Positions 29,063 through 46,201 of a DNA stretch of 64,000 bases are shown here, one piece after another. Below the pieces are notes generated by a model. That model worked only from the letters and a program-made list of their open reading frames with translations, had not been told where the DNA came from and made no database searches. Source of the DNA: a virus. The position numbers and the translations under genes are program-made. Every line of letters begins with the position of its first letter. Within the stretch, counting starts at the first letter, position 1. Location: IMG/VR virus record IMGVR_UViG_3300029171_000004, one strand, 5' to 3'.

Positions 29063-30175
29063 TTACTTAATTAAACCAGTAGATAATTCAGCTTTAATAG
29101 CTGGGTGAGATTTATAACCATCCAACGAAAAATCACTATAGCTTAAAGAAGAAAAGTCATAAGTTTTACCAATCGTTTCCCAATCTATATCTCTGGTTTC
29201 AATTAGTTTTGGAAGAGCCATAGGCTCTCTTGATAATTGTTCTTTTACAGCTTCTTCGTGGTTTGAATAAATATGGACATCGCCAAATGTATGAATAAAA
29301 TCTCCAGGTATCATATTACAAATCTTTGCAAAGATATGTGTTAACAATGCATAAGAAGCAATATTAAAAGGAACACCAAGAAAAGAATCTGCGCTGCGCT
29401 GATATAATTGGCAATCGAGATAATATTTTGGGACATTCCACGCATCCATCTGATAATGAATTAATGTTTCAATAAATGGACTAATATTGCCCTTTTCTGG
29501 ATTATCACAAATTTCCATTCTTTGTTGCCAAGTTAAAGGTCTGCAATTAAATTGAAACATTGCGTGGCACCAATATAAAGCCAAATCACCCTCGTGACCA
29601 GGATCAATTGCTGTAACAATATGTCTTCTAGATTCTGGATTTTTTTGCAATGATGATAAAACTCCTGCGATTTGGTCGTGCGTCATCGGTCTTTTATTGC
29701 TACCATCTTGCTCTATTAAATCAAACTCTGTGGTCCAATATCTCCACACTTTTCCATATTGATATCCGCAGTCGCCTAATTTATAAGTTTTATCTTTAGC
29801 ATGTAATACTCCCCATTCGAGATCCCCTTCTTTTATTTTTAAAACAAAGTCATCAAAAGATAGTGGTGACTCGGTGTTTAAGCCATACTCTTTTGATTTT
29901 TTGATGTAATAATTATAAGCGTCTTCATTCCAAATATTTACACCGTTATCCACAAGATATTTTATATTTGTGTCACCACGAAGAAACCAAAGAAGTTCAA
30001 CAACAACGCCTTTAAAAAACATTTTTTTTGTTGTTAGTATCGGAAATCCATCAGATAAGTTATGTCTGAATTGATAACCGAACAAACTTTGTGTGCTAGG
30101 CATACCCGCTCTTGCCGCAGGTTTTAATGTGCCATTTTTCTTAATAGAAGATAATAACTCCAGATATTGTTTCAT
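29063..30175 (-). CDS. thyA: thymidylate synthase
   Basis: ELLWFLRG, GYQYG, SRRHIV, YWCH, YQRSADSFLGVPFNIASY, GDVHIY. Confidence 0.95.
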   Translation of the reverse strand: MKQYLELLSSIKKNGTLKPAARAGMPSTQSLFGYQFRHNLSDGFPILTTKKMFFKGVVVELLWFLRGDTNIKYLVDNGVNIWNEDAYNYYIKKSKEYGLNTESPLSFDDFVLKIKEGDLEWGVLHAKDKTYKLGDCGYQYGKVWRYWTTEFDLIEQDGSNKRPMTHDQIAGVLSSLQKNPESRRHIVTAIDPGHEGDLALYWCHAMFQFNCRPLTWQQRMEICDNPEKGNISPFIETLIHYQMDAWNVPKYYLDCQLYQRSADSFLGVPFNIASYALLTHIFAKICNMIPGDFIHTFGDVHIYSNHEEAVKEQLSREPMALPKLIETRDIDWETIGKTYDFSSLSYSDFSLDGYKSHPAIKAELSTGLIK

Positions 30176-32445: not shown

Positions 32446-32512
32446 TTTATTTCTTTATTTATAAATATATTTCTAAAATATACAAAACCTAACCCTTAAA
32501 ATAAATAATAAC

Positions 32513-33142
32513 ATGAATCTTTATAGCATACAACGTGGTGAGATTTCATCAAAAGGCAAAAAAAGACAGCCAATATTGTTTCAAACATTGTTTATATCCA
32601 TTGGTTTGGTTTTGACAATATTGTTATCAAGTGCTACAATGGGTTTTATAACTCTATTGATATATTTAGTTTTTGCACTTAATTGGTCAATTAGTTTAGA
32701 ATCACAATCTAAAAGAGTGTATTTTTTACCGCAGTGTTCTTATGCGTCTCCAAATAGCGATAAAATAAATGTTGTATATGGGTTTTCACGTGGATATTAT
32801 AAGTGGAATTCGGCATTCATAGGATGGAGGGGAATAGGAAATGGTCACATAGAATTATTGGCATGTTCATATTCAAATGGTAAATTAATAACCAAAGTAA
32901 TGCTTGTGTGTAAAACTCAAAATTGGGTGTTTTTAAACATTAGAAATAAGAGCGGAAAATATGTTTTTATGGTCAGAACACATAATGGCAACTATAACAT
33001 TTCCTCAATTCCAAAACCAAAATTCATGTCAATTTACACTTTATTTAAACTATTTATAATAAACATGTACCCAAGACTTGCGAATGGCACCAAAACAACA
33101 TTCGATACAAAGTTATACGTACAAACATTGGAAAATAAATGA
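32513..33142 (+). CDS. membrane-anchored hypothetical protein
   Basis: Two N-terminal hydrophobic helices. Confidence 0.55.
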   Translation: MNLYSIQRGEISSKGKKRQPILFQTLFISIGLVLTILLSSATMGFITLLIYLVFALNWSISLESQSKRVYFLPQCSYASPNSDKINVVYGFSRGYYKWNSAFIGWRGIGNGHIELLACSYSNGKLITKVMLVCKTQNWVFLNIRNKSGKYVFMVRTHNGNYNISSIPKPKFMSIYTLFKLFIINMYPRLANGTKTTFDTKLYVQTLENK

Positions 33143-33381
33143 AAAAAGAATTGAGCGAAAAGGAGTTAAGGGAGTTTATAAAAAACTCACTAAAAGAGCT
33201 GGATGTTCTATTGCCAAAAGAAAAATCTGATTGGAAAGATGAGGTTACAAACTTACGTGCAACTCTTGTTGACTTAATGAAAAACATAGAAAACGACAAT
33301 TTTGAAGACGGTGTGAAAAAAATTGATTCTGCCGTAAAATTATTAAACAGCTGGAAGTCTAAAATAGAAAAACTTTTATAA
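33139..33381 (+). CDS. hypothetical helical protein
   Basis: 80 aa ORF, ATGA-coupled. Confidence 0.6.
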   Translation: MKKELSEKELREFIKNSLKELDVLLPKEKSDWKDEVTNLRATLVDLMKNIENDNFEDGVKKIDSAVKLLNSWKSKIEKLL

Positions 33382-33382
33382 C

Positions 33383-33595
33383 ATGAACGAAGAGTACCCT
33401 GATTTTCATGGAGATCACCCAATTAACCATTATGAAATGGTTGGGTGTAGTTGCGGAAAAAACTGTAATTGTAAAGCAAATTGTGATTGCAAAACATGCA
33501 AATGCGAAATGTGTTCAAAAACTTGTGAGTGTGATGGTAATTGCTCGTGTGGCAAAAATTGTGCCTGTGAACATGGGTGTACTTGTCTAAGTTAG
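33383..33595 (+). CDS. metallothionein-like Cys-rich peptide
   Basis: 17 Cys in residues 22-68, mostly CxC; starts 1 nt after upstream stop. Confidence 0.7.
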   Translation: MNEEYPDFHGDHPINHYEMVGCSCGKNCNCKANCDCKTCKCEMCSKTCECDGNCSCGKNCACEHGCTCLS

Positions 33596-34474
33596 TTTAT
33601 ATACTTCAAGACTTGGTCTAGCTTTTAAAATTTCAATCCAATTATTTTCTTTTAATTTACTAAAGTCGCAAATATGTAAATATTTTTCTGGTTTGTGAAT
33701 TAATAATTTTTCCCATCCAAGAGCCGTAATTTCATCTTTATCTATTTCGTATAATAAATGTGAAAAATCTGGGTTTTCAAACAGTGTTATCAACTGTATT
33801 AGGTTAAATGGATCTCCATATTTGAACTTTTCAAAATCACAGTATTTAATAAAATTTGGTCTATAACAAAACAGATCTAACCAATTAAGCGTGGTCAATG
33901 ATTCAAAAGAAAATATATCTAACATCTCTTCGTTGGTGGCTTTGAATATGTATGCGATTTGATGGCTGTTTAAAAGTGAATAATTTAGTCTTGTGATTAC
34001 TTTTCTTTGGCAATCATATGCCTTTATTATATTGAAGCATTCTATGTGATTGAAGTCGTATTTTTCTAATTCTATTTCATCCAAAAATTCTTCAACGCCA
34101 ATACAAAGCAATAGATGGGCATCATCTTTCGATAAATTTTTTAAATCAAAATCAAAATACTTTGTTAATCTTGTATAGTCAGCTTGTATGAAATACCATA
34201 TATCTTTTATTCTATATTCATATTTTTTTAAATTTATTTTTTTCAACAATTCGGGTTGTCTTGTTACAATCCTTATCGCTTGCATTTTTTCAAGTTTTTC
34301 CCATTGTACATATGGGTGCAACTCTTCATTATCACACAAATATCTATCTTCTAGATTGGGGTAATCCAATAAATTTGAGATGTGTCTCAACTCTTTTTCG
34401 CTCAGTTCGGCCCACATTGTGCAAAACAAGTCATTAATCAAACATAACAATATTGAGTTTATATCTTTTACCAT
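33587..34474 (-). CDS. helical repeat protein
   Basis: Recurring W..L...(Q/R/K)P....CDF units. Confidence 0.6.
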   Translation of the reverse strand: MVKDINSILLCLINDLFCTMWAELSEKELRHISNLLDYPNLEDRYLCDNEELHPYVQWEKLEKMQAIRIVTRQPELLKKINLKKYEYRIKDIWYFIQADYTRLTKYFDFDLKNLSKDDAHLLLCIGVEEFLDEIELEKYDFNHIECFNIIKAYDCQRKVITRLNYSLLNSHQIAYIFKATNEEMLDIFSFESLTTLNWLDLFCYRPNFIKYCDFEKFKYGDPFNLIQLITLFENPDFSHLLYEIDKDEITALGWEKLLIHKPEKYLHICDFSKLKENNWIEILKARPSLEVYKLT

Positions 34475-46139: not shown

Positions 46140-46201
46140 AATTTCTGATTTTTATTTATAAATACTAAAAAATTTCTTAAATTTGAGCCTAGACGAATAA
46201 A

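Follow-up and report, generated by a model that had tools for sequence, protein, structure and literature searches.

Does a phage encode its own metallothionein? The question is raised by a small Cys-rich open reading frame at 33383..33595 (+ strand) of the window, by which we mean the whole stretch of 64,000 nucleotides analysed here (IMG/VR virus record IMGVR_UViG_3300029171_000004). Metallothioneins (MTs) are well known in eukaryotes. The original prediction for this locus added that no well-characterised phage metallothionein was known, and our full-text literature searches agree: they returned no characterised example, only survey-level mentions of MT 'AMGs'. Viral contigs carrying a metallothionein annotation are mentioned in PMC12917443 and PMC13317609.

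We re-read the ORF and counted its residues. It runs from an ATG at 33383 to a stop codon at 33593-33595, and the upstream 80-aa ORF ends with a TAA at 33379-33381, followed by one nucleotide and then this ATG. The 70-aa product carries its Cys at residues 22, 24, 28, 30, 34, 36, 39, 41, 44, 48, 50, 54, 56, 60, 62, 66 and 68, which make up 8 CxC, 2 CxxC and 6 CxxxC motifs. The sequence CSCGKNC occurs twice (residues 22-28 and 54-60), and since the codons of the two copies differ, they do not come from a recent DNA duplication. There is no Phe, Trp or Tyr between the first and the last Cys, and of the four His residues three (9, 12 and 16) belong to the N-terminus and one (64) falls within residues 22-68. 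The original prediction had described 70 aa with 17 Cys in residues 22-68, mostly as CxC, a repeated CSCGKNC, an aromatic-free Cys region, His in the N-terminus and a start 1 nt past the upstream stop, and the re-reading and the counts bear out all of these features.

With a per-codon Cys probability of ~0.03, taken from the base composition of the window, 17 or more Cys among 70 codons have a probability of ~2e-11, and a chance origin of the Cys richness is excluded. Among 144 window ORFs (ATG-ORFs of at least 50 aa), this one has the highest Cys fraction, 0.243, followed by a runner-up at 0.10, with a median of 0.013. The composition is also that by which metallothioneins are recognised. The protein, with its 70 aa (48-98 aa in the family described below), falls under the low mass usual for them (<~10 kDa); its Cys content, 24% overall and 36% in the tail, and its CxC, CxxC and CxxxC motifs correspond to the ~15-35% Cys in such motifs that they typically have; and the Cys region shares their scarcity of aromatics and of His. 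An AF2 model built from a 27-sequence alignment reached a pLDDT of 48.8, too low to base fold comparisons on, and was without secondary structure. As far as this model goes, the protein would have no autonomous fold, which is compatible with an apo-thionein that folds only on metal.

A family of Cys-rich genes in large phages

Searches with single sequences found little. Neither a word-indexed homolog search with the Cys-rich sequence nor a look-up of identical 70-aa entries gave a match, among 50,697 GenBank phage records tblastn with the protein met 2 chance matches at E=7 and nothing else, and no related loci were found in IMG/VR from single sequences, either the Cys-rich protein or its 295-aa neighbour. 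An exhaustive phmmer search against 1.84 billion representatives recovered 8 homologs of 55-64 aa, with E values from 1.8e-12 to 1e-4. A profile search brought the homologs to 25 and scans of IMG/VR and JGI contigs yielded more, so that we now count ~30 distinct homologs of 48-98 aa, every one of them on a contig of related large phages in freshwater or wastewater metagenomes. Existing records label them 'hypothetical protein' or leave them unnamed. No longer or fused forms of the protein were found (weak evidence). We found no true cellular homolog among 185,579 species representatives, and by these searches the family is apparently restricted to phages. Two candidate cellular homologs were rejected: in one (L018), an 11-residue YPDFHGDSP match lies in an unrelated 137-aa ORF on an Acidobacteriota MAG contig, and in the other (L019) the match falls in a non-ORF frame.

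A homolog search in viral catalogues was one of the checks put forward with the original prediction, and the ~30 homologs answer it favourably; a second one, codon conservation among homologs, gave an equally clear result. All 13 of the 13 core Cys columns stay Cys, with TGT and TGC alternating among loci. For the Cys-rich gene pS is 0.55-0.93, mostly saturated, versus a pN of 0.25-0.48, and dN/dS, where computable, is 0.17-0.45. The retention of Cys through TGT/TGC swaps and the low dN/dS indicate that the frame is under purifying selection at the protein level, and the homologs confirm the reading frame of the ORF. We are therefore virtually certain that the Cys-rich ORF is a real gene, and it is probably expressed.

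The three-gene unit and its phage

The Cys-rich gene has the same surroundings wherever these can be read. For every homolog with a readable context the gene order is identical: a gene for a ~365-aa protein on the (-) strand, then genes for a 208/209-aa, an 80-88-aa and the Cys-rich protein, all on the (+) strand, and finally a convergent gene for a ~295-aa protein. The junction ahead of the Cys-rich gene, a stop codon followed by 1-3 nt and an ATG, is kept across the related loci, and when loci were found through the 80-aa protein alone, 10 out of 10 had the Cys-rich gene 1-3 nt downstream of its stop.

In the window, the first gene of the three-gene unit (32513..33142, + strand), characterised by synteny, AF2 and Foldseek, encodes a 209-aa protein with 2 predicted TM helices and a LamG/ConA-like jelly-roll domain (AF2 pLDDT 70.5), and Foldseek relates the model, with E values between 1e-3 and 1e-5, to the folds of laminin-G, neurexin and alginate lyase. 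Next comes the 80-aa helical protein (33139..33381, + strand), to which the Cys-rich gene is translationally coupled by the junction of stop, 1 nt and ATG. Its alignment (A3) has a mean column identity of 76%, unusually high for the clade, and its C-terminal half is invariant, with the end WKxKIEK[FL]L. On the other side of the Cys-rich gene, the convergent gene (33587..34474, - strand) encodes a 295-aa alpha-helical-repeat protein, syntenic in all relatives, whose Atlas structure matches Ank/PPR-like solenoids. Pfam, PHROG and Atlas gave no functional family for the 209-, 80- and 295-aa neighbours, and no metal-related function was found among the neighbours of the Cys-rich gene.

The divergent intergenic region upstream of the unit (32446..32512, with no strand assigned) is a putative promoter, marked by a conserved palindrome. 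This is the perfect 12-nt TATTTATAAATA at 32456-32467, which, like a AAAATATAT block located downstream of it, is kept in 8 of 8 related loci. A second copy of TATTTATAAATA lies at 46153-46164, in the divergent region ahead of an IF3-like gene, and from its position and conservation the element is a candidate phage promoter or operator. A scan of the region for sigma-70 promoters and terminators performed no better than on shuffles. Two wastewater metatranscriptome libraries, both from one study, contain contigs of 1.7-1.8 kb that are ~89% identical, with no indels, to window positions 32450-34200. They cover the three-gene unit and the 3' part of the convergent gene and end near 34150-34200, which is a weak hint that the unit is expressed; the contigs may also represent carried-over DNA.

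Judged by its genes, the window, with a GC content of 31-35%, is part of a large phage. Pfam identifies a thymidylate synthase, a MazG domain, an SNF2 helicase, an NAPRTase, a DDE transposase and a cREC-domain protein with a poly(A)-polymerase/CCA-type nucleotidyltransferase head domain, together with weak dNMP-kinase-type matches, and the Cys-rich locus is flanked by genes of nucleotide metabolism (thyA, dNMP kinase and MazG). We found no close phage relative in GenBank, where megablast of 12 kb gave no match, and no cultured relative was identified. Contigs with the same DNA, 95-99% identical, occur in metagenomes of freshwater and of other sources, and shared words link the window to several studies of aquatic, riverine and wastewater metagenomes. 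Among the related IMG/VR records, the most complete one measures 153 kb at an estimated completeness of ~52%, which puts the genome at roughly 300 kb.

One of the flanking genes shows a variation of its own. At the thyA slot (29063-30175 in the window, and L009:3451-5014, L010:4146-5027 and L003:2516-3681 among the relatives) some relatives have thyX (Thy1), in one case beside a GIY-YIG/NUMOD3 gene. The thyA of L003 and that of L004 are each split by the gene calls into ORFs of 83 and 295 aa, and a GIY-YIG/NUMOD1 gene lies ~1 kb off. These arrangements suggest non-orthologous replacement at the slot, with possible intron or homing-endonuclease activity.

An invariant motif, a modular tail and what they may do

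The protein is built from two very different parts. The first is an N-terminal motif, E-Y-P-D-F-H-G-D-x-P-I, at codons 4-14 (33392..33424, + strand), which may act as a docking 'handle'. Its residues Y5, P6, D7, F8, G10, D11 and P13 are invariant in an alignment of 27 sequences (A2), with M-x(1-3)-(E)-Y-P-D-F-H-G-D-x-P-[ILV] as the consensus start of the family, and the codons for Y, P, D and F differ synonymously among loci. In the window and the related loci the motif was not found beyond the Cys-rich gene. A polar linker of 8-12 residues joins it to the second part, the tail of CxCxxxCxC modules at codons 22-68 (33446..33586, + strand), as defined by alignments and module counts. The tail units are, in order, CxC-x3-CxC, CxC-x2-CxC-x2-C and CxC-x3-CxC.

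The tail differs among relatives in the number of its units. All of the 27 aligned members have at least 6 Cys, the number ranging from 6 to 18 across the family, and 16 of them have exactly 13. Where a member has 13 Cys or more, as 20 of them do, this residue makes up 31-38% of the tail and aromatics and His are almost absent; a tail without any aromatics is found in 22 of the 27. Residues 57-68 of the window protein form an additional 4-Cys CxC-x3-CxC unit that most relatives do not have and that brings the total to 17. As a consequence of this extra C-terminal unit, the stop in the window reaches into the 3' end of the convergent gene, with an overlap of 9 nt that is seen here only, as against -1 to 4 nt in relatives. 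Additions occur elsewhere too, with 18 Cys in P0020 and an extra unit at the tail front in P0024 and P0025, and in some members units have been lost, leaving 9, 8, 7 or 6 Cys, with P0027-P0030 lacking most of the tail. Constraint is thus strongest on the N-terminal motif, with a modular, evolvable Cys tail behind it. In P0030 (L009:8001-8297), a natural 'tail-swap' variant, the N-terminal motif is intact and is followed by a different 98-aa body whose only Cys cluster is a C-terminal Cx6CxCx3C.

The reading that we favour, with a probability of roughly 60%, is that of a phage-specific metallothionein-like metal-thiolate peptide equipped with a docking motif. The Cys-rich gene is the last of the three-gene unit behind the conserved putative promoter region, and its translation is coupled to that of the upstream 80-aa gene. 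In the reducing cytoplasm, the aromatic-free tail, ~35% Cys in CxCxxxCxC and CxCxxCxCxxC units, would wrap clusters of a soft metal through its thiolates, with Zn(II), Cu(I) or Cd(II) as the candidates. A nine-Cys beta-like segment would fit a cluster of the M3Cys9 type and further CxCxxxCxC units would add capacity, so that some 4-5 divalent ions might be bound by the usual 13-Cys form and a somewhat larger number by the 17-Cys form of the window. The 11-residue motif (E)YPDFHGDxP[ILV] could, as a short linear motif, dock on a conserved partner of phage or host origin or, rich as it is in Tyr, Phe, Pro, Gly and Asp, could instead pack on the cluster. A precedent for the activity comes from metagenome-mined MT-like sequences of similar composition, 20 of 23 of which conferred metal resistance when expressed (PMC11705764). 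What counts against a metal-thiolate peptide is the varying number of Cys, down to the loss of most of the tail in some members, and the fact that the strongest constraint is on the N-terminal motif and not on the presumed metal site. The sub-threshold, composition-driven nature of the likeness to MT families and the lack of any metal-related neighbour speak against it too.

The peptide could store or donate metal while the phage makes protein on a massive scale, protect against metal stress, or serve to withhold metal in a targeted way; any single specific physiological role is no better than possible, and on the doubtful side. The role put forward in the original prediction, a Zn/Cu buffer or a donor for the Zn-finger proteins of the phage, finds no support in the neighbourhood, where nothing relates to metals. 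The invariant motif, the strict coupling to the conserved 80-88-aa gene and the variable tail, none of which the original prediction had recognised, point together to a docked or targeted Cys-rich module and not to a free bulk buffer. A narrower proposal, which we consider unlikely, is that the motif docks the metal-thiolate tail on one specific partner, so that the protein would be a targeted metallochaperone or a metal-stripping inhibitor. That partner could come from the host or from the phage itself, the co-translated 80-aa protein being one option, and Zn might, for example, be loaded into a phage enzyme or removed from a host factor. If true, this would add a new functional class to the phage proteins. 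Whatever its partner, a protein that joins an invariant linear motif to an evolvable tail of Cys modules makes a simple, synthesisable system, and it opens the questions of how a phage supplies Zn or Cu during massive protein synthesis and whether metal is withheld against the host.

An invariant N-terminal motif suggests a fixed partner, and it could also belong to a structural or virion-associated adaptor that is anchored through the motif to a capsid, tail or membrane component. Held together by disulfides or by a fixed cluster of the Zn3Cys9 type (as in CXC/pre-SET), its tail would make macromolecular contacts instead of buffering metal. The first gene of the unit, predicted to encode a membrane-anchored lectin-like protein, would suit such an adaptor. 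But the Cys modules vary freely in number and arrangement (6-18 Cys), which is atypical of a precise structural domain, the flanking genes belong to nucleotide metabolism (thyA, dNMP kinase, MazG) and include no structural module, and no signal peptide is evident by inspection. In addition, as is generally known, CxC motifs at a density of 35% are typical of thiolate clusters and not of disulfide knots. We think an adaptor of this kind distinctly unlikely.

The same variation in Cys number, tolerated across the family, would fit a bulk chemical role, and MTs are known as scavengers of ROS and RNS (PMC7387436). The protein might accordingly be imagined as a thiol-rich decoy or redox scavenger that quenches oxidants, electrophiles or a host defence product and forms no defined metal cluster. 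Against this, the CxC/CxxC spacing is strictly kept in most members, 16 of the 27 having their 13 Cys, and such strict spacing argues for a defined coordination geometry; we rate a scavenger as quite improbable.

The conserved N-terminus and hypervariable Cys-rich tail also recall the precursors of RiPPs, in which the N-terminus would be the leader recognised by a maturase and the tail the core to be cross-linked, by thioethers as in ranthipeptides/SCIFF or in a similar way. The small conserved protein encoded directly upstream could be taken in the same sense, but the pairing of a conserved leader with a variable core, which the family does display, is not specific to RiPPs. No cognate maturase was found in the window ORFs scanned, among the neighbours or in three related records: rSAM, YcaO and LanC-type Pfam matches are absent from the 25 window ORFs scanned, the folds of the syntenic neighbours are non-enzymatic, the radical-SAM domain (PF04055) is missing from the three related viral records, which are incomplete genomes of 53-153 kb, and related contigs carry no maturase-type Pfam annotation. 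The window ORFs of at least 120 aa contain 2 CxxxCxxC motifs. A RiPP-type precursor is, in our view, very improbable. As for a chance or non-functional ORF in TGY-rich low-complexity DNA, for which one could cite the other open frames over the same stretch and the lack of any database model match, it is effectively already refuted by ~30 homologs whose synonymous divergence is saturated and whose indels are in frame, yet which all share the frame, the start, the N-terminal motif and the Cys columns, as well as by the P of ~2e-11 for the Cys excess.

Likeness to known metallothioneins and other Cys-rich peptides

We return to the metal-thiolate peptide and compare it with known proteins. No Pfam, NCBIfam or PHROG model matches the Cys-rich protein at threshold, and for the window protein Pfam gives no match even at E<=10. 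Over the 27 members Pfam returns five sub-threshold families, of which three are metallothioneins: Metallothio_PEC (PF02068) in 4 members, with a best E of 0.011, Metallothio_2 in 2, and Metallothio (PF00131) in 1 of 27, at E 0.73 and without reaching the gathering score. When the family profile was run against all PDB sequences, 6 of 7 matches were metallothioneins, at E 1.5-10 and with heavy composition bias; they comprise mammalian MT-1/MT-2 beta-domains, a snail Cd-MT and a 25-residue MT (1t2y). Language-model neighbours include three MT clusters (plant, fungal-type and vertebrate), with scores to be taken as leads only. All of this likeness to MT families is sub-threshold and composition-driven (E 0.011 to 10). 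The original prediction had placed the protein nearer to eukaryotic MTs than to SmtA, and the weak PDB and Pfam matches uphold this, being to vertebrate, snail, fungal and plant MTs; SmtA/BmtA (PF02069) is matched by 0 of the 27 members and is absent from the PDB matches at E<=10.

The closest correspondence is with the beta-domain of vertebrate MT-1/MT-2 (M(II)3Cys9; PDB 1dft, 2mhu and 2mrt; PF00131), whose nine Cys align with Cys22-Cys44 of the phage protein. Seven of the eight inter-Cys spacings are equal, the second loop being 2 residues shorter in the phage protein, and the similarity is non-significant (E 2-6 after bias correction). Both proteins are small, about one third Cys and free of aromatics, with Lys, Ser, Thr, Gly, Asn, Asp and Glu between the Cys. 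Vertebrate-type MTs combine this nine-Cys beta-domain with an eleven-Cys alpha-domain containing CC doublets, whereas the phage protein has neither CC doublets nor an alpha-domain, and it alone has an invariant 20-residue N-terminal extension with aromatics and His. Its modules also vary in number. The likeness is more probably a product of convergence than of descent. Plant Ec/PEC proteins, the fungal Cu-MT (1t2y) and a snail Cd-MT (6qk5) share with the phage protein a CxC-rich modular tail, but have other Cys patterns and lengths and do not have the YPDFHGD motif; 1t2y and 6qk5 match at E 5-10 and PF02068 at a best E of 0.011, all under curated cut-offs.

Among proteins of the prokaryotic world, SmtA/BmtA, the Pseudomonas PflQ2 MT and the mycobacterial MymT are likewise small, Cys-rich and metal-binding, but show no sequence or profile match to the phage protein. 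SmtA-type proteins have ~9 Cys plus His and a zinc-finger-like fold of the Cys9His2 type, and their Cys density is far below that of the phage protein. The function of bacterial MTs has been investigated in only two cases, SmtA, which detoxifies Zn, and MymT, which detoxifies Cu (PMC7387436). Ranthipeptide/SCIFF precursors are also short, with a conserved N-terminal and a Cys-rich C-terminal part; the Cys density of the phage protein is far above theirs, and no radical-SAM gene was found near it.

The MT 'AMGs' of virome surveys are known at the level of annotation only, and the context given for them in a New Phytologist review is that of temperate phages in metal-polluted soils. The Cys-rich gene differs from them in being a fixed syntenic gene of jumbo phages, unannotated and with a unique N-terminal motif. 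It belongs to a previously undescribed family that holds a fixed slot in every related contig examined, in a widespread clade of uncultured large phages from freshwater and wastewater. This suggests that metal handling, or an interaction based on Cys clusters, is part of the infection programme of these phages and not an occasional 'auxiliary' gain. Metallothioneins are a polyphyletic and operationally defined class, and the Cys-rich phage proteins are a new family within it.
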